53,399 bases of DNA from Candidatus Nanohalarchaeota archaeon (GTDB lineage: Archaea; Nanohalarchaeota; Nanosalinia; Nanosalinales; Nanoanaerosalinaceae): the NCBI GenBank assembly GCA_022729255.1, contig JALDAG010000002.1, forward strand, positions 1 to 53,399, read 5' to 3'. The notes beneath the pieces are model-generated. The model saw only the letters and a program-made list of their open reading frames with translations. It was not told the origin of the DNA and made no database searches. Position 1 is the stretch's first letter; each line of letters starts with the position of its first letter. The position numbers and the translations under genes are program-made. Of this stretch, positions 1 through 37,201 are shown piece after piece.

Positions 1-2
1 AA

Positions 3-119
3 GGCAAAGAAAAAGTGAAAGAGATGAACAAGGCAGATTTCGAGAAACTATTGAACTTTGAAAAAGCTCACCAGAACCGGAAAGGCATGAAAAAGTTTTT
101 GAGAAGTAACATGAGGTAA
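3..119 (+). CDS. 3' end of a gene cut by the window edge; probably ribosomal protein L31e with a C-terminal helical extension
   Basis: Open frame GKEKVKEMNKADFEKLLNFEKAHQNRKGMKKFLRSNMR* ends 4 nt before aIF6. L31e-aIF6 is a conserved archaeal gene order, so the identity rests on position only. Confidence 0.5.
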   Translation, partial: GKEKVKEMNKADFEKLLNFEKAHQNRKGMKKFLRSNMR

Positions 120-123
120 ACAT

Positions 124-786
124 ATGGCAGATGACCACATGTTCTTCGCAGACTACCAGGGAGATATAAACCTAGGTTTTCATGGAATAGTATCAGAATC
201 ATTCTCTGTTGTTGCCCCGGGGTTCAACAGAGCAGAGGTTTTTGGAACAAAGAAAGTTTTTGAGGGACTTAGGATATCGAACACTGATCTTATAGGATTA
301 TTCGCAGCTGGGAACTCCGAAGGTATAATTCTTCCGAACATTGTGTCTGACCATGAAAAAAAGCTTCTTGAAAAAAACGATATAAATTACATGGTTATCG
401 ATTCTAAGCACACAGCTATTGGAAACTTGGTGCTTGTAAACGACAAGGGATGTCTAATATCAGAGGTTCTGGAACCTTTCAGAGAAGAAATTTCCGATTT
501 TTTCGGTGTACCCGTCGAGACAGGTGTACTAGCAGGTACTGGAATGGTTGGTTCAGCGGGTTTCGTGACGGAAAAAGGTCTTTTGGTACACAGGGAAGCC
601 GAAAGAGAGGAGCTAGAAATCGCGGAAAAAGTCCTTGGAGTCAAAGGAGATATCGGTACAGTTAATTTCGGTTCTCCGTACGTTGGTACGGGTATAATAG
701 GTAACTCGAAAGCAGTGATGGTTGGGAACAACACTACAGGTCCCGAAACCGCAAGAATCGACAAAGCCCTAGGATTCCTTAAATAA
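124..786 (+). CDS. eif6: Translation initiation factor 6 (aIF6)
   Basis: 220 aa with eIF6 motifs GNLVLVNDKG, GTVNFGSPYVGTG and TTGPE. Confidence 0.95.
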   Translation: MADDHMFFADYQGDINLGFHGIVSESFSVVAPGFNRAEVFGTKKVFEGLRISNTDLIGLFAAGNSEGIILPNIVSDHEKKLLEKNDINYMVIDSKHTAIGNLVLVNDKGCLISEVLEPFREEISDFFGVPVETGVLAGTGMVGSAGFVTEKGLLVHREAEREELEIAEKVLGVKGDIGTVNFGSPYVGTGIIGNSKAVMVGNNTTGPETARIDKALGFLK

Positions 787-3765: not shown

Positions 3766-6700
3766 TCAATTCAGGTCTGTAAATATTTCAACTGATTCTG
3801 TTTCACCCGACAAAGTTCTTATGTTCGCCGGTACCTTTGCCTCGTAATCGTAAATCCCGTGTTCTCCCTCGGTATTTGGATTAACCTCTGTTATGAACAC
3901 CAGATCCTGACTGCCGTCATAGGGCTCTCCCTGACTTGTGTCGTAAAGTATCCCTGTCTGAAAATCTTCTGTAATAGTTGAATTAACTACAGGTACTTCA
4001 CAGACTTCATCATCGCTGATAATGAAGCAATCCGTTTTGTCGGGTGTTCCATCACCTTCTTCATCCCATAAATCCTCTACTGAATCATTGTGGTTTGTTA
4101 TGCCGAGAGCATCGTCTATCGTTTCTAGAAAGCCTGTTTCAGTCGGTGCTTCGAGCTGACTGAATGAAATATCAGAATCTATATCAGCGAATAAAATGTT
4201 TCCTTCAGGTTCCTGTCTCAGCCAAGTGTTGAACTCAGAGTCATCGGCTCCAAGCCTAACAGTTTTTTCGCTGCCGCCATAAAAAATGTTGTAACTTGAG
4301 ACATCAACGAGTTCTGTCAGAGCTTCTTCTTCATCTGAACCTGGTTCGGCCGTAACTCTGTTCGGTCCCTGCACGAGTTTTTCAGTGAAACTCACGTTTT
4401 TTGTTTCCCCAGAGTCCAGAGTAACTGATTCTGTAGAGTAAGAAAGGAACTCCCATTCTTCACCGTATTCGTCTATTGAAAGATTTATCTCTATGTTTTC
4501 CGCTGTTAGATCACCTGTATTAGTTGTTTCTGCGATTATTGAGGTATCCTGATTTTCTACAATCCTGTCTTCAAAGTATAAATTATTTAATTCAACCGTG
4601 GGAGGTTCGATGACTTCCAAATTTCTGGATTCGTAGTCATCTTCTGTTTCTGCTTTTTGTTCATATTCTCCTGGTTCTTCTTCAACAGTGTATTCGAATT
4701 CAACGGTTTCACTACCTCCTGGCTCAAGTTCCAGTGTAACCAAGTCTTTAGTATCTCCTTCAACCTTGTAAATGATCTGTTGCTCTCCTGTTACACCACC
4801 TGTGTTTTCTACCGTTGTGTTAGGGTATATGGTTCCGTCCTGAACTGCTGTGTCAGGCGCCTCGAAATTTATTATTTCAAAATAAGGTTCAACAACTTCT
4901 ACAGTATAATCTTCGGCTTCTCCATAGAAATCATCGTTATAGGGATCCGTCTGGTACTCATCAAACATCAAGAAAGCTCTCAGCCTTGTTTCTCCAAGTT
5001 CTGCGTCTTCGGGAATAGTTAATGTTCCTGTGACCTGACATCCATCACTACCTGTTTCACAGCTACCTATATCATGGCTTCCCTGGTCGAACTCTATGTT
5101 TTGGTTCCAGTCACCGAAAACGTTGAAGTAGTGGTCATCTCCTGAGAACTCTGATTGAGATTCCATGGTGACATCATAACTACCTCCTGGCATTACGAAT
5201 GCTTTTTGACCAATTTCATCGTATGTGAAGTCGGCATAACCTCCATCGTCTCCTGAGGAATGGGAGATATCTGTCAACTCAAAATATGTTATGTGCTCGT
5301 ACTCTGTGTCACCCACTGCTATCTCATAACCTCCTATCTGGACCTTTGTATGGCTAGATTCATCATCTGTATGGATATAAACGTCATATATTCCTTCATC
5401 ATATTCTTCAGTGTCAAAATTATAAGTATGGGTGGTCACAGCTCCACCGTCAAGGGTTATCTCTTCTTCATCGACTATGTTGTTGTCAAATTCCATCTCT
5501 GTCAACTGTGTGCCCTCAAGGTCTCCAGTGTTGTTTATCTCAGCCGTCACTTCCAACATTTCCCCTGGATCAGGATTATTGGAGTCTATAATGTCGACCT
5601 CGAAATACCCGAGTTCCCCGATGAGCACATCTGTGCTGTCCGAACTGTCCTCTGATTCCACCACTGCCTCGTATTCCCCGGGCTCTTCTGTCGTGTCGTA
5701 GAAAAACGTGTCTGAATACACATCTCCAGATTCTAGATAGATGTTCTCAATCCTTTCCACCTCTTCATTGTTAAATATAAGCAGTATATCCTGCTCATCC
5801 TCAATATCTCCCACGTTCTCAACATCAAAATCGATTTCAAGAGTTCCTTCTTCATCTATAGGGCTGTTATCCCCTGTAATATCGACCTCGAAGAAAGGTT
5901 CCTGACCTTTTACGATGTTCGCAGTGTCATAATCATCATCAGACGATACGTTGACCTCATAAGTGCCGTCATCCTCTGTTGAAACGTCCTTGGTGAATTC
6001 CAAGGTACGAGTTTCATCTTCCTGTACCAGGAAGTCTTCCTCGACATCATCAAGATCATTATCAAAGTAGAACTCTATGTCCTGTTCCCCGTCCATCGTA
6101 CCAACGTTCTCAATCTCAGCTTCAATTTCAAGATAGTTTGCTACAGGGCTGTTGGTCGATGTTATGTCCACCAAAAAATCCATGTTTCCAACGAAAATAT
6201 CTCTTTCATAAGAATCATCCTGAGTCTCAGCTGTATGAGTATAGTAATACCCTCCTTCTTCTTCTACAGTATATTCAGGTGTCATAGTGTATGTGTCTCC
6301 AGGATCAAGGGTTTCAGTTTCCTCTGACACTGTACCTCCATCAAACATGTAGGTTATCTCTGCTGTTCCTGAAAGCTGTCCCGTGTTTTCTACGGTTATC
6401 TCGGGCTCTATTGTTTCACCCTCCAGAATCTCGGAAGGAGAATCAAAATCGATAACCTCGAAGTTATCATCCTGTATATCGATGGTGTAGTCATGAACCT
6501 GACCGAAAAAACCTCCTTCATCAGGATCATCGTGGTACTGATCGTACCTGAGTATCGACCTGAGTCTTGTTTCTCCCAGTTCTGCGTCTTCGGGAATAGT
6601 TAATGTTCCTGTGACCTGACAGCCATCTCCTTCTGTGGTACAACTTCCTATGTTTTGACTTTCCTCGAACTCCATGTTTCCTTCCCAGTCACCGAAAACG

Positions 6701-9700
6701 TTGAAGTAGTGTTCATCACCGTAAAAACCTTCCTCGGACTCCATAACAACGTTGTATGTGTTACCTCGTTCCACAGTTGCGACCTCTTCTGTGAAATCTA
6801 TGTATCCATCTTCGTCGTTCTCATTAGTATTTTGAATCTCTTCGATTTCGAAATAACTCATATACTCGTACGAAGGATCGGCTTCAGGCCTGGAATAATC
6901 TCCCACTCTTATGTATCCGCTGTCAGATTCATCATCAGACCTTATGATGTACTCGTAACGATCTTTCTCATCAGGAACAGTATGCTTGAGGGTTTCAGTA
7001 ACGCTTTCTTCTGGTTCGAGTTGGATCAATGTTGAGTTGACCACTTCTCCATCGAATAACAGTTCCAATTCCTGTTCGCCCTCAACGTCTCCCGTATTGA
7101 AAACCTCGAAATCCACTTCAAGTGTTTCGGAAACATTTAGAGGTCCGTTGTCACCTATTATAGATACTTCGAAAATATCAGGGTTTATAACATCGATTAG
7201 CTGGGATTCGGAATCATCAGAAGTGGTTATCTCCTCTATGTAATTTCCAACTTCGACATCTGATGTGTTGTAAGAGAAGCTAGTGGTGATGGAGTCTCCG
7301 GGTCCTAGAGAAATCGTTTCAGTATCTATTTGTTCCCCGTCGAAATAGTATCTCACGGTATCTGAAGCAGGTGCTTCACCTGTGTTCGTTATAGTTGCAG
7401 AAGCATAAGCATATTCTCCCTTCACGACTTCATCCATGGTCTCCATTTCAGTTATAATAAATTCGCTGTCAACTATCTCCACCGAAAAGTCCTGAGCTTG
7501 ACCCTCAAGATCTTCAAGATAAGGGTCATCTATGTAAGATGAAGCATCCACGAAAGCTCTCATACGGGTATCTCCCAGCTCAGCGTCCTCATCAACCAGA
7601 AAGGAAGAGGTCACATCGCAAGTTCCAGCACAGTCCTCAAGGTATATAGGGTCGTTGAAATCTATGTTTTGATCCCAGTCGAAGAAAAGCGTCAAATGGT
7701 GATCACCCCATCCTGGAGCATCATCCGTTGTGATGGTTATATCATATGTTTCGCCTCTTGCAAGGACAGCTTTTTCACCTATAACACCTTCTGTGTAGTC
7801 TATATAAATTGAATCTTCATCTTCTGGCTCTATCTCATTGCTGATTTCTTCCAATTCAAGATAAGATATGGTGCCATCGTCGTCACCAGCAGGAATATCA
7901 TAAGTACCTACCTGAACTGATACAGAGTCATAACTGTCTTCCGTCTCCACAGTTATATCGTAGACGTCTTCAGGATCGCCTGTGGTATCATAATCAAAGT
8001 TGAACGTTTGTTGGTCTCCTCCATCTAATATCACGTCCTCCTCAACATCCTCGATATTTCCATCGTAAAAAAAGTACACGTCTTTTTCGGCTTCTGCATC
8101 CCCCAAGTTTTCTACATCAACCTCCACAGTAATAACATCTCCTGGATCAATATCTGGAGGAGAAATGCCTGTTATATCGACGTGGTAATATGCTTCATCA
8201 CCGATAAGAACAGTTTCGGTGTCGGATTCGTCTTCTGATTCAACTGTGACATCTCTGTAACCTCCATCTTCTTCACTGGTAGTATAATTGAACTCGATGT
8301 ACTCCTGTTCTCCTCCTTCAAGCTCCAAACTTTGGGAACCTTCAAGAGAACCTTCAAAGAAGAAATCTATTGATTGTTCTTCTAAAAGACCTCCGATATT
8401 CTCCACCGAAGCGTTCACAGACAAAATGTCGCCAGGATCTGTCTCACTGGTATTCATGATTTCCACTTCGAAATAAGGAGCGTCTCCTATAACAACAGAG
8501 GTCGAATCCATATCATCATCCGTTGATATGTTCACCCTGTAGTCGCCATCAAGATCATCAACTTCTTTGGTGAAAAAGAAGGATTCCGTCTCTCCAGCAT
8601 CTATACCGGCCCTGTCTTCAGGTATTGTTTCTTCCAGACTGTGATTGAAATAAAAATCGATTTCCTGCTCTCCGTATATATCACCGGTGTTTTCTATTAC
8701 CGCTTCAACCTCCAACTCTCCTTCCTCGACAGGAGAATTAGTGATTATATCTGAGACCTCAAAATACATGTATTCGACTATTATAGGTCTTTCAAGCTGT
8801 TCAGAGCTGGTTTCCACACGGTGCTCGTACTCGCCTCTTTCCTCATCGACTTCATCATATACAAGTGTGACGGTTTCTTCCTCGTCTGGCCCTATTGTTA
8901 CGGTATCTGAATCCACTTCATGATCGTTGAAATAATAAAATATTTCTTCTGAACCCTCATAGGATCCATCGTTTTGGAGAGTTACTTCGACCTCCAGAGA
9001 TGTATATTTCTCAACTTCATTTGGAGAGTCGAAAGAAGACATTGTTATATCTGCTACCTGTTCTATCACTTCTCCATCTTCACCACTCTCTCCCATCTGA
9101 GAACCGCTTCCCCCGGATCCTCCTGAAACAGAAAGATCTCCTGAATCTTCAAAACTGGAAGTTGTCAACTCTATTATTCCTCCGTCTCCTCCATCTCCTC
9201 CTATACCTGACGATCCTCCTGCAGGACCTCCTGATCCTCCTGATCCTCCTCTACCACCTTCAGCCATAACTTCTCCAAAGATGTTTAGTTCAAAATCCGC
9301 AACTATATTTATGTTTCCTGCATCTCCTCCTTCTCCTCCGTCTCCCCCATCCCTGTTACCTCCAGCATCTCCTCCGTCTCCTCCGTCTCCTCCATCCGAA
9401 GAAACTGTTCCATATATGTTTACCTCTTCTGCAACAAAATCTATATTGTATCCGTTTTCTCCATTTCCTCCAGGTCCTTCGTCATCGTGATCATCACCCT
9501 CCTCTCCAGATCCGTCTAAGTATCCTGAATCAGTGACTTCTATGTATTCAGCTTCTATGTTTACTCCTTCAGGGCATACATCAACTTCTCCATCGATAAA
9601 AACTTCGTCGTATTGAGTTATATCGTCACAAATTTCATCTCCATCTCCATAAGTGACTTGTGAACTAACAGAATTAGATAACGATACCAAAAGAGCAAGG

Positions 9701-9738
9701 GCTATCAAAAGTTTCACAAGGCTGGAGAATTTTGCCAT
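3766..9738 (-). CDS. Large secreted acidic surface/adhesin protein (Gly-rich region, many CARDB-like Ig repeats, three GEVED-like domains)
   Basis: Signal peptide; GGDGG repeats; repeated 'V.N.G...G' CARDB-like units; three 'DW....F...LG.TR.R.....G...D[FY]' modules. Confidence 0.8.
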   Translation of the reverse strand: MAKFSSLVKLLIALALLVSLSNSVSSQVTYGDGDEICDDITQYDEVFIDGEVDVCPEGVNIEAEYIEVTDSGYLDGSGEEGDDHDDEGPGGNGENGYNIDFVAEEVNIYGTVSSDGGDGGDGGDAGGNRDGGDGGEGGDAGNINIVADFELNIFGEVMAEGGRGGSGGSGGPAGGSSGIGGDGGDGGIIELTTSSFEDSGDLSVSGGSGGSGSQMGESGEDGEVIEQVADITMSSFDSPNEVEKYTSLEVEVTLQNDGSYEGSEEIFYYFNDHEVDSDTVTIGPDEEETVTLVYDEVDEERGEYEHRVETSSEQLERPIIVEYMYFEVSDIITNSPVEEGELEVEAVIENTGDIYGEQEIDFYFNHSLEETIPEDRAGIDAGETESFFFTKEVDDLDGDYRVNISTDDDMDSTSVVIGDAPYFEVEIMNTSETDPGDILSVNASVENIGGLLEEQSIDFFFEGSLEGSQSLELEGGEQEYIEFNYTTSEEDGGYRDVTVESEDESDTETVLIGDEAYYHVDITGISPPDIDPGDVITVEVDVENLGDAEAEKDVYFFYDGNIEDVEEDVILDGGDQQTFNFDYDTTGDPEDVYDITVETEDSYDSVSVQVGTYDIPAGDDDGTISYLELEEISNEIEPEDEDSIYIDYTEGVIGEKAVLARGETYDITITTDDAPGWGDHHLTLFFDWDQNIDFNDPIYLEDCAGTCDVTSSFLVDEDAELGDTRMRAFVDASSYIDDPYLEDLEGQAQDFSVEIVDSEFIITEMETMDEVVKGEYAYASATITNTGEAPASDTVRYYFDGEQIDTETISLGPGDSITTSFSYNTSDVEVGNYIEEITTSDDSESQLIDVINPDIFEVSIIGDNGPLNVSETLEVDFEVFNTGDVEGEQELELLFDGEVVNSTLIQLEPEESVTETLKHTVPDEKDRYEYIIRSDDESDSGYIRVGDYSRPEADPSYEYMSYFEIEEIQNTNENDEDGYIDFTEEVATVERGNTYNVVMESEEGFYGDEHYFNVFGDWEGNMEFEESQNIGSCTTEGDGCQVTGTLTIPEDAELGETRLRSILRYDQYHDDPDEGGFFGQVHDYTIDIQDDNFEVIDFDSPSEILEGETIEPEITVENTGQLSGTAEITYMFDGGTVSEETETLDPGDTYTMTPEYTVEEEGGYYYTHTAETQDDSYERDIFVGNMDFLVDITSTNSPVANYLEIEAEIENVGTMDGEQDIEFYFDNDLDDVEEDFLVQEDETRTLEFTKDVSTEDDGTYEVNVSSDDDYDTANIVKGQEPFFEVDITGDNSPIDEEGTLEIDFDVENVGDIEDEQDILLIFNNEEVERIENIYLESGDVYSDTFFYDTTEEPGEYEAVVESEDSSDSTDVLIGELGYFEVDIIDSNNPDPGEMLEVTAEINNTGDLEGTQLTEMEFDNNIVDEEEITLDGGAVTTHTYNFDTEEYDEGIYDVYIHTDDESSHTKVQIGGYEIAVGDTEYEHITYFELTDISHSSGDDGGYADFTYDEIGQKAFVMPGGSYDVTMESQSEFSGDDHYFNVFGDWNQNIEFDQGSHDIGSCETGSDGCQVTGTLTIPEDAELGETRLRAFLMFDEYQTDPYNDDFYGEAEDYTVEVVEPYFEIINFEAPDTAVQDGTIYPNTTVENTGGVTGEQQIIYKVEGDTKDLVTLELEPGGSETVEFEYTVEEEPGEYEQKAETEDDYESRNLEVIEPPTVELNNLYFEDRIVENQDTSIIAETTNTGDLTAENIEINLSIDEYGEEWEFLSYSTESVTLDSGETKNVSFTEKLVQGPNRVTAEPGSDEEEALTELVDVSSYNIFYGGSEKTVRLGADDSEFNTWLRQEPEGNILFADIDSDISFSQLEAPTETGFLETIDDALGITNHNDSVEDLWDEEGDGTPDKTDCFIISDDEVCEVPVVNSTITEDFQTGILYDTSQGEPYDGSQDLVFITEVNPNTEGEHGIYDYEAKVPANIRTLSGETESVEIFTDLN
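4985..6627. repeat. Intragenic direct repeats between two GEVED modules
   Basis: 62 bp at 4985-5046 and 6566-6627 (2 mismatches); identical 27 bp at 5107-5133 and 6685-6711. Confidence 0.85.
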
Positions 9739-33393: not shown

Positions 33394-34761
33394 TTACATT
33401 TTTTCTTTAATCCATTTATTCATGGTTTTCCTGTTCTTGTTTTCTTTCTCTTTTTCGAGAAGTTTTTCCAGGTCTACCTCATCTATGTTATCTTCCACCA
33501 ACTTTTTTATTTCTGAAATATTCATCTTTGCGAGTTCATCGTAATCGATGTCAGCCCTGGATTTCTCAGCTTTTTCAGCCTCCCTTTTCTTTTCCCTCTC
33601 CTCTATTTTTCTCTGTTTTTCTTCCCTAATCTTTTTTCTTTTCTCTTCTATCTCTTTAAGAACTGATTCCGGAGCTTTTCCAGGTTTTGCTGTTAATTTA
33701 AGGTTACCTGTTCCCATTGGGATGACCTGTCCAAGTATTATGTTTTCAACAACCGATTTCAAAGGATCGATCTCTCCTTCTATCGCTGCGGTTGTTACGT
33801 GCTTTTTAGTTTCTTCAAAAGCAGCTCTCGCAAACACTGAATCCTTTGAGCCACAGATTCCATATCTTGTAGCTCCATTTATCTCTCCGTCCTTTGTCAT
33901 AGTGTCTGATATGAGAAGCAACCATCTATCATCTACTGCCATTCCCTGTTCATCCAGCGTCTTTCGCATCTCCTTGTATATCAGGTTCCTAGTCGCTTCT
34001 ATACCGAAGACTTTTTTGAATTGGAATATGTCGTTGCAGACAGTCCTAGTATCATCCACTTTTTTCAATCTTAGAACTTTTTTAAGATTTATACCTGCGG
34101 TCTGAACTCTCCATTCACCGTCTTCTTCAAGTATCACAACGTCTTTGATACCTTTGAATCCGTGAAGCCTGTAATTCATTATTTTAGCTTTTATGTCCTG
34201 AAGATCTTTCAGGCTGTAATCATCCTTGTCAGGGGTTATAGTGAGTTCATAATCGTCTACATTTATGTTCAAACTGTATTTTCCTTTGAGTTCTTCCACG
34301 ACTTCGTCGACATCCATAAGGTACTCTTCCAAAATTTCGGGGTTGATAACGAACTTCATCTCCAACATCGTAAGGTCTATCGTGTCCTCCGAAACAAGGT
34401 CTCCTAGGTTTACTTCTTTTATTTTTGCAGCTATCTCCTTAGCTTCTTCCTTAGTCCTGTGCCCTTCTTTGAGATAAATGTTCATTATAGGAGTTTTAGG
34501 ATTTCTTCTTGCATTGATGATTTCTATGAGTCTTGGAAGACCCTGTGTGATAGATACTTTTGCAGCTCCTGCACTGTGGTATGTTTCCATGGTCATCTGA
34601 GTTGCTGGTTCAGATATGGACTGTGCTGCAACAAGTCCTATTGCTTCTCCAGGTTCAAAAAGCATCTTTCTGTACTTTTCCTTAAGCTCTTCCTGGTTTG
34701 GACTGTCCCTGTACTTTTCAGGGAGTTCCTCAACATCTATAGTAGTATCTTGTTCTGTCAT
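33394..34761 (-). CDS. rpoA2: RNA polymerase subunit A'' (Rpo1C) with a C-terminal extension of about 95 aa
   Basis: [36 protein letters not shown]. Confidence 0.96.
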
Positions 34762-34771
34762 ATTAATCACC

Positions 34772-37201
34772 CTAGTCAGAGACCAGTTCACCTCTATCAG
34801 ACTTTGAAGGATCTATTCCATCCTCTCCGGCCTTGAACTGTACCACAGTTCCATCAGACGCCATCACCGAACGGTTTTCTTCGACTTTCAGATCCTGTAA
34901 AGCGTTTGAAATCCTACGGTACATGTATCCCGAAGTCCTAGTTCTTAGAGACTGGTCCATCAGTCCTTCCCTACCGGACATGATCTCGAAAAACATTTCA
35001 TCCGGTTCAAGTCCGTTAAATATAGATGATGCAACGAAACCTCTGGCCCTTGGACTTAGATCGTTCTTCTTGAAATGAGAAAGGTTTCTTTCTTTGAAAC
35101 CTCTTGAAATTCGTTCTCCTCTCACTGTTTCCTGCCCCATCAGTCCTGCCATAATGGACAGATTGGTCATTGAACCCCTTGCACCGGACTCTGCCATGAT
35201 CCTCGAGGAGTTCTCAGGTATCTCCCTGTCAACAATCTCCTCGACCTCGGTTGATATGGATCTAAGTTCCGATACAAGCTTCACTTCAAGAGTTTCTTTC
35301 TCGGTTTTACCTGTCAGAGGCTCTATTTCTCCTCTATCATATTTTTCGATCAGCTTGTTCGCCTCATCAACTCCTTTCTGTATCTCTTTTTCTATTTCTT
35401 TTCTTCCTTTTTCTGATACCTCAAGATCGGAGGTGCTTATGGAGAAACCTCTTCTGTCCAGGTATTTGATACCTAGTTTTGTCACCTGATCTATGAACTT
35501 CTGTGTTTCATCCTTATCGTACTCTAGAAGGAGCTGGTTCAGTATCTCGCCTCCGTAGTCTCCTACAAGATCCTCATCTATCACTCCTTCGATCAGTTCA
35601 CCGTCTTTTATCACCGCTTTTTTATTATCTATGTTTATCTTTTCAGGTATGAAGAGAGATATTATTTCTTTACCCGTCAAAACCTCTTTTTCCGGAAGTT
35701 CTTTGTCGTAAGCACCTGTTGCTGTAATAAGGTTGTAAGCTTTATCCCTAGGGATCTCATCGTCTTTACTCAAAAGGTATAGTCCTGATATGTGATCCTG
35801 CATCATACCCACGATAGGCCCACCGAACTTCGGAGACTTGATATGATTACTAACTTCCAGAAGCTCTTCAGCTTCAGCCCTTGCCTCTTCTGTCTGAGGT
35901 ATGTGCAAGTTCATCTCGTCACCGTCAAAGTCGGCGTTGTAAGGTGGACAAACAGCAAGGTTTATTCTGAATGTTTTGTAAGGCATTACCTTGACCCTGT
36001 GACCCATCATCGAGTTTCTGTGAAGTGAGGGCTGTCTGTTGAAAAGCACGACGTCCCCATCTATTAGGTGTCTCTCAACCTTGTAACCCGGTTCAAGCTC
36101 TTCTAATATCATTTCCTTGTTTTTATCAGTCAGTTTTTTCTTGGTTCCATCATCCCTGAAGATGTAGTTAACACCTGGATGGTTCTCAGGACCGTTTTCG
36201 ATCCACTGCTTGACCTTGTCCATGTTGTCTTCCTTGACCTTTACAGGTATGGTCAGTATCTTTGCTATATCTTCTGGTACACCTACTTCGTTTAGGTCGA
36301 TGTTTGGATCAGGAGATATAACGGTTCTTGCGGAAAAGTTAGCTCTCTTACCGATAAGGTTCTGCCTGAACCTACCTTCTTTTCCTTTGAGTCTTCCTAT
36401 AAGAGATTTTAGGCTTCTTCCCGATCTGTGCCTTGCAGGAGGTATTCCCGAAATCGAGTTGTCGTACATCGTTGAGGAATGGTACTGCAGTAGTTCCCAT
36501 AGATCCGAAATAATAAAGTCAGGTGCTTCTATTTCTATGTTGTTTCTTAGCCTCTGATTTATTCTTATCACGTCAACCAGTTTATGAGTAAGGTCGTCCT
36601 CCGATCTTTGACCTGTTTCAAGTGTTATGGAAGGTCTTATTGTCACGGGTGGAACAAGCAGGTTTTCTATTATCAACCATTCAGGTCTTCCACCTTTCAC
36701 ACCCAATTTTTCAGCTGTTTCAGTAGGTATCTTTTTAAATCTCTCCTTTATCTTGTCAGGCGTGATCTGTTCGCCATCCTCGTAGTAGCTATAAGGCTTT
36801 TCAAAATCTATATCCACTTTCTCGGTTCCACACTCGGGACAGGTGCTCATCCTGTTACTTTTTCTGAGGGATTTGTCCTCATTTTTCATCAAAAGTGTCT
36901 GGCACTCATTACATGTGAATCTCAAAAGGTTTCTTATCTTTTTAGCGTAAAGAACGTTAACTACAGGTTTTGCAAGATCGATATATCCAAAGTGACCTTT
37001 GCACTCTCTCATCCTGCCTCCACAGGTTCTACAAACCATACCAGGATCCAGTACACCAAGAGAAGGATCCATTACTCCTCCCTCTATAGGATATCCGTCT
37101 GCATCGTAAACTTCTGCCTTGCTTATCCTTTTAACAGCCATGTTTCTGATCTTTTCTGGATTCATAAGTCCGAACTTGATACTTTCTACTTTATTTGGCA
37201 T
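34772..37201 (-). CDS. rpoA1: RNA polymerase subunit A' (Rpo1N)
   Basis: [25 protein letters not shown]. Confidence 0.98.

Follow-up and report, generated by a model that had tools for sequence, protein, structure and literature searches.

A predicted four-helix module on the ends of RpoA'', ribosomal proteins and membrane proteins of Nanohaloarchaeota

A shared module on RpoA'' and eL31

Why should a subunit of RNA polymerase and a ribosomal protein end in the same peptide? The question arises from contig JALDAG010000002.1 of Candidatus Nanohalarchaeota archaeon (GCA_022729255.1; genome G000 below), of which positions 1–53,399 of the forward strand, a stretch of 53,399 nt, were analyzed (‘the window’). 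Here RpoA'' runs on beyond its GTG motif through a linker into a C-terminal module (Table 1); the true start of the gene is likely the ATG at 34761, directly past the RpoA' stop at 34772. An earlier note on this DNA had remarked that the ORF at the start of the window ends in a similar peptide, and had proposed a portable tag that could co-localize or couple polymerase and ribosome through a common partner or by self-association.

Both peptides are present where that note had placed them. BLASTP aligned the RpoA'' tail with the window-start ORF at 13/30 identical residues (E 5e-8), and the local alignment score of the pair (69) was reached by none of 10,000 shuffles (mean 28.0 ± 4.9, maximum 55). 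The similarity is thus significant in the very test that had been named as its possible refutation, and chance similarity of the two tails is ruled out. The segment noticed earlier was genuine but covered only the C-terminal part of a full module of ∼50 residues.

Table 1. Features of the window at the RpoA'' and eL31 loci
Feature	Position	Strand	Evidence
RpoA'' (Rpo1C), RNA polymerase subunit	33394..34791	-	PF04998, E 3e-48
C-terminal module of RpoA'' (51 aa), divergent DUF8129-like, four predicted helices	33397..33549	-	
Stretch from GTG motif to module in RpoA'' (52 aa), mostly charged E/K/R-rich linker	33550..33705	-	
3' end of eL31 with the last 38 module residues	3..119	+	119-nt overlap, PF01198
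aIF6, next gene after eL31, without module (context only)	124..786	+	PF01912, E 1.5e-45

The window begins at a contig end. Contigs C2 and C12 share an exact 119-base overlap, which allows them to be joined. The final 119 bases of contig C2 are window positions 1–119, and the complete upstream gene was retrieved there (G000:C2:23751-24266). It encodes eL31, as had been supposed under the name L31e: PF01198 matched with 36.1 bits (cut-off 25; E 7e-9), and the gene order is eS19-PDCD5-eL31-aIF6 (PF01090, PF01984, PF01198, PF01912). Elsewhere in the window, positions 3766–9738 (minus strand) encode an acidic protein of 1990 residues that looks secreted and contains repeated domains as well as a Gly-rich stretch.

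Carriers in the genome and across the phylum

A profile search over all six-frame ORFs of G000 returned six carriers, each at E ≤ 8e-11 with the broad profile, followed by a clean gap (next match, E 1.2). The module is C-terminal in RpoA'', eL31, uS3 and a protein with two hydrophobic segments; it is N-terminal in a membrane-anchored protein and in an MCP signalling protein (chemoreceptor). In the membrane carriers, the placement of the hydrophobic segments suggests that the module would be cytoplasmic. What had been presented as a feature of one pair is therefore more widely shared, although both members of the pair do carry it. Identity to the RpoA'' module within the genome is 57% for uS3, 34% for eL31 and 29% for MCP, the eL31 copy being among the two least like it. 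The uS3 module is 94% identical to the copy of Ca. Nanoanaerosalina, the closest named record.

The module-bearing MCP, which has no obvious membrane segment, is surrounded by CheY-, CheW-, CheC-, CheD-, CheA- and CheB-like genes recognized by eye (G000:C49:56700-66400). Two histone-fold-like ORFs (G000:C26:13319-13552 and C38:7045-7293) gave sub-threshold profile matches.

Of 70 Nanohaloarchaeota genomes, 69 matched the module profile at E ≤ 1e-5. The 70th, G013 (93% complete), has the least acidic RpoA'' core in the phylum and an RpoA'' without module; the end of its uS3 bears a divergent candidate (E 0.004–0.02, weak but in the expected place) with an 8-residue insert and with K15, E34 and R40 kept. 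Given these matches and this candidate, the uS3 fusion is probably ancestral in Nanohaloarchaeota. The eL31 and RpoA'' of G013 have long Lys/Glu-rich tails without module; such tails may predate acidification.

We then have a census of loci from 29 relatives (G013, with no match, was omitted) comprising 172 carrier rows, a few of which are one gene counted twice via overlapping loci. The module was found on uS3 in 26 genomes, eL31 in 20, uL24 in 17, RpoA'' in 14, eS24 in 12 and uL10 in one, with blanks uncertain where genomes are incomplete; a family search in five genomes recovered the eL31 gene in one, so that the eL31 blanks of G005, G016, G018 and G021 are no absence calls. The two-segment membrane protein is a carrier in 12 of the 29 relatives, and an N-terminal module with an anchor accounts for 24 rows in 22 genomes. 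Further carriers are MCP, a PilB-type ATPase, an E2 acyltransferase and a KaiC-like ATPase. Altogether 76 rows are ribosomal and 14 are RpoA'' (90 in total), and 82 are neither. On the ribosome, a genome has up to four carrier proteins, some with two copies, and up to five copies occur in tandem; the search for stand-alone forms of 25–93 residues, a weak one, scored none.

A folded appendage on uS3 is thus phylum-wide, and particular families have it on eL31, uL24, eS24 and RpoA'' in addition. In the literature searched this alteration of two of the most conserved machines is undescribed, and it is surprising that ribosome and polymerase should have recruited the module repeatedly. Module-bearing tails can also distort marker alignments.

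The RpoA'' fusion follows families. One copy is present in all 10 genomes of family f1 (G000 included). In f4 the gene was recovered from six genomes, five of which have two copies; the 11 f3 genomes all lack it on RpoA'', though all 11 have ribosomal modules. The f3 tails, read for seven of the 11 genomes, end 11–13 residues past GTG, in agreement with the earlier description of canonical RpoA''. Conversely, G005 and G007 have the RpoA'' module and a uS3 whose acidic tail is kept without module. Obligatory coupling of polymerase and ribosome is therefore unlikely. The portable tag of the earlier proposal stands, with uS3, uL24, eS24 and uL10 added to eL31; its coupling part is weakened by the same two patterns and by the 82 rows that belong to neither machine.

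Two other RpoA'' genes deserve mention. That of G027 lacks the module and has, past GTG, a 162-residue acidic tail containing another kind of aromatic/basic segment; that of G006 (contig C12) lies inside an open frame of 949 codons, interrupted by a long insert resembling an intein with endonuclease.

Relation to known families

By sequence comparison the module is a divergent homologue of DUF8129 (PF26450), a family of no known function. In hhalign it matched 10 N-terminal repeats (4 annotated ETF proteins) over 45 columns with probability 96.9 and E 1.9e-10, against a maximum of 2.8 for 40 column-shuffled alignments. These repeats would be the PF26450-annotated part, since the remainder of the proteins is ETF. 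Shared with them are T/S10, E/D13, E34 and R40, whereas the haloarchaeal DUF8129-type repeats have lost K15, have weaker K38 and K41 and carry a net charge of −9.7. The best named Atlas clusters, taken as leads only, were also DUF8129 (0.79–0.83). Of 92 profile hits, 91 lack the DUF8129 label, which marks the module as a divergent subfamily; the sole bearer is an ETF protein, with no ribosomal or RpoA'' carrier labelled. As precomputed PF26450 annotation covers just four of 10 DUF8129-type hits as well, the Pfam model has a narrow reach, and this subfamily probably falls outside it. No publication on DUF8129/PF26450 was found. The present carriers give a first handle on this functionless family and its kin, phage and lipid-droplet proteins included.

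The lipid-droplet kin is NF033649 (LipDrop_Rv1109c), a whole-protein actinobacterial family that shares its C-terminal domain alone: model positions 146–197 of 198 matched a DUF8129-type repeat (E 4.8e-9), and one of our 27 modules matched (E 0.0047). Related proteins scored 36.5 and 51.9 bits against a cut-off of 110 and so fall outside the family. The available portions of the lipid-droplet literature gave no function for this C-terminal part; the accessible text of PMC5504291 describes DNA binding by lipid droplets via a different protein, MLDS, and that of PMC10699116 held nothing relevant to a function of the domain.

Among phage families, 11 of 27 modules matched positions 68–112 of phrog_1983 (PHROG 1983), weakly (best E 3.5e-4). 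The homologues in Microbacterium phages are hypothetical proteins of no known function, come from non-halophilic hosts and conserve K15 and K41 less than the archaeal module does.

Rho_N, HEH, SAP and LEM are small helical tags that serve as promiscuous nucleic-acid-binding appendages. They resemble the module in size, in terminal tethered position and in a T-V/I-x-E helix start; they differ in that the module model has an extra helix and no Pfam match. At E ≤ 0.001, Rho_N (PF07498) was found in none of the 70 genomes of the phylum (the control was detected in 9/14); it was also absent among the families matched by the 27 modules at E ≤ 1, and without an HMM match we ruled out the module as Rho_N. 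Single-module Pfam and NCBIfam searches gave nothing at cut-off, Foldseek no match in the PDB, and BFVD nothing under E 1.9, its top rows being uncharacterized phage proteins. A sequence search of solved structures gave best E-values of 0.078 and 0.049, which are not credible. Wide comparison with VIA-align listed generic helical repeats alone (best Z 5.4, rmsd 2.0, 49 aligned), a list outside which other families may lie.

No description of the module fusions was found in the text accessible to us, though subscription journals and supplements could hold domain annotations; the main texts of 10.1101/2022.05.20.492899 and 10.1101/2023.07.03.547478 mention neither ‘extension’ nor ‘DUF’.

Occurrence beyond the phylum

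The profile search gave 630 representatives of 50% clusters at E ≤ 0.001, and hosts and positions were taken from the best 150 of these 630. Among these 150, added hosts are uL22, eS6, uS4, bL31, MoxR, MinD-type, PhaE and thioredoxin-fold proteins, and 140 have the module at a terminus. An MSBL1 archaeon is among the sources that bear a name, as is a putative Paceibacteria record with the module on bL31. A contig in a record titled Colwellia polaris contains an archaeal-type block (eS24 with module, RpoE-like, Kae1-like) and is probably mis-binned.

In a second archaeal phylum (one record is titled Micrarchaeota), five of 31 genomes matched, with the module on eS6 in three and on uS4 in three; two further matches have no identified host. 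Acid-shifted lineages outside Nanohaloarchaeota have acquired the module on different ribosomal proteins. Within a module-carrying clade, the eS6 of one genome (G074) has, in the module's place after a long acidic linker, a C2H2-like zinc finger. Several G000 proteins also have terminal C2H2-like motifs.

The phage-type module matched 63 Microbacterium phage records, and in the one region read (phage Megan, gp23) it ends a protein whose gene is flanked by those for the major capsid and the major tail protein. The archaeal tandem module had no match in annotated phages; an IMG/VR scan gave two loci with partial matches within a 908-residue protein, judged spurious.

The terminal position raises an alternative that we consider unlikely: a ligand-free structural cap, in which a soluble fold would end acidic tails, guard against proteolysis or aggregation and space crowded complexes in a salt-in cytoplasm. 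Position at the very end of the chain fits it, as does the linker that precedes the module on uS3 (43% D/E), and the fold is freely lost, as from the uS3 of G005 and G007. Carriers in the second phylum are also more acidic: D+E in aIF2-gamma is 15.3–17.6% in four measurable carriers vs 10.2–12.7% in 18 non-carriers (28 loci, six without usable aIF2-gamma), a contrast that may be one event since the carriers may be kin. Yet many acidic tails stay uncapped (uL24 of G000 and the two uS3 just named), the least acidic member of the phylum has the divergent uS3 candidate, and lysines persist at three positions in acidic proteomes.

Anatomy and conservation of the module

AlphaFold2 predicted four helices for the RpoA'' module (residues 3–8, 11–20, 27–37 and 41–50; pLDDT 88.5). 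The tandem-module prediction was too low in confidence to inform (pLDDT 57.7, pTM 0.36), and a complex prediction for the RpoA'' and uS3 modules gave no answer either way (score 0.00). Across 199 modules E34 and R40 are invariant, and a basic residue is found at position 15 in 96%, at 38 in 86% and at 41 in 62%, with a mean net charge of −4 to −8 by family. Near-invariant K15 and the aromatic W46 characterize this subfamily.

The module is conserved above its linker. Identities for core, module and linker are 0.70, 0.50 and 0.31 in uS3 (22 of 26) and 0.69, 0.54 and 0.42 in RpoA'' (five genera). Modules on different hosts within one family (0.44) are about as alike as modules on the same host across families (0.42), and so the role of the module looks host-independent.

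In a tree built on 51 columns for 80 rows (14 genomes; many forks unsettled), lineage accounts for the grouping of modules better than host does, and the terminal eL31 module of f1/f4 forms a distinct, well-supported clade. By this grouping the RpoA''/eL31 pair with which we began joins two distant classes, RpoA'' being closer to the uS3 copy.

Lineage-wise similarity is what co-evolution with one partner per lineage would produce, and it brings in a possible though rather unlikely explanation, that the module is a protein-docking tag. It would bind a common cytoplasmic partner (chaperone, protease adaptor or scaffold) or itself, and so sort or cluster large complexes. The hosts are unrelated and nearly all are subunits of oligomeric assemblies, copies stand in tandem, and in four cases the uS3/uL24 or uS3/eS24 copies of one genome are sisters. 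The same similarity is, however, also expected from gene conversion or composition drift; no candidate partner was identified, and a common one is hard to name for relatives on phage structural-cassette and actinobacterial lipid-droplet proteins.

Possible function of the module

The comparisons establish that the module is tethered, occurs in multiple copies and has been interchanged among hosts. We tentatively favor, with somewhat less than even confidence, a host-independent tethered cap with a putative low-affinity RNA/DNA grip through a conserved basic cluster (K15, K38, R40 and K41). The module, predicted to fold alone as four helices on the charged tails of its hosts, whether ribosomal proteins, RpoA'' or membrane proteins, would gather its basic residues into a single surface close to where helices 2 and 4 begin, with the phosphate backbone as the putative ligand. 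Several copies per ribosome could give avidity in molar salt, and copies could let ribosomes, polymerase and membrane complexes stay close to mRNA and the nucleoid. We rank weak, multivalent nucleic-acid binding first because acidic proteomes have retained the lysines, 90 of the 172 rows are on RNA/DNA machines, the two mRNA-entry proteins (uS3 and uS4) each gained the module, in different phyla, and one eS6 bears a C2H2-like finger instead of the module.

Several facts count against the grip. The module is net acidic and has no structural match with a known nucleic-acid-binding fold; R40, jointly invariant with E34, may instead pair with it as a structural salt bridge. The basic cluster is eroded in the haloarchaeal repeats and, at K15 and K41, in the phage type. 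For some carriers (dihydrolipoamide acyltransferase, type II/IV secretion ATPase, MCP and ETF) a need to bind nucleic acid is not obvious, and the module is dispensable on single hosts. Either way, it offers a small soluble test object for the organization of ribosome and polymerase in molar salt.

The ribosomal proteins eL31, uL22 and uL24 sit at the peptide exit of the large subunit. One may imagine, as a quite improbable extension, a tether-based expressome in salt-adapted DPANN: the module in CTD position and those of uS3 and uS4 would grip nascent mRNA or each other, while exit-side and membrane copies would organize transcription, translation and membrane insertion within a nanosized cell. 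On such a reading uS4 would have been recruited independently in the second phylum and uS3 in Nanohaloarchaeota. The likeness to the eukaryotic RNA polymerase II CTD is one of position alone, at the C terminus of the Rpb1-equivalent chain, and no homology is claimed; RpoA'' has one or two copies of a folded module rather than heptad repeats, and the module has many other hosts.

Very unlikely, in our estimate, is a dedicated transcription–translation coupler in which the RpoA'' and uS3 modules would link polymerase and lead ribosome, directly or via nascent mRNA. The exit-side position of eL31 and uL24, far from mRNA, speaks against it, as do the many carriers outside both machines, and the patchy pairing of RpoA'' and uS3 modules speaks against coupling as a requirement. 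The positions of the two hosts fit: in the accessible text of PMC8116511 uS3 and uS4 flank the mRNA entry, and in that of PMC2675907 the RpoA'' C terminus contacts the Rpo4/7 stalk and the eukaryotic CTD is described as a bolt-on module. This stalk contact and bolt-on parallel keep the coupling idea alive for f1 and f4. Both hosts bear the module in 12 of the 29 relatives and in G000; where f4 genomes have doubled it on RpoA'' (five cases), four have doubled it on uS3 too.
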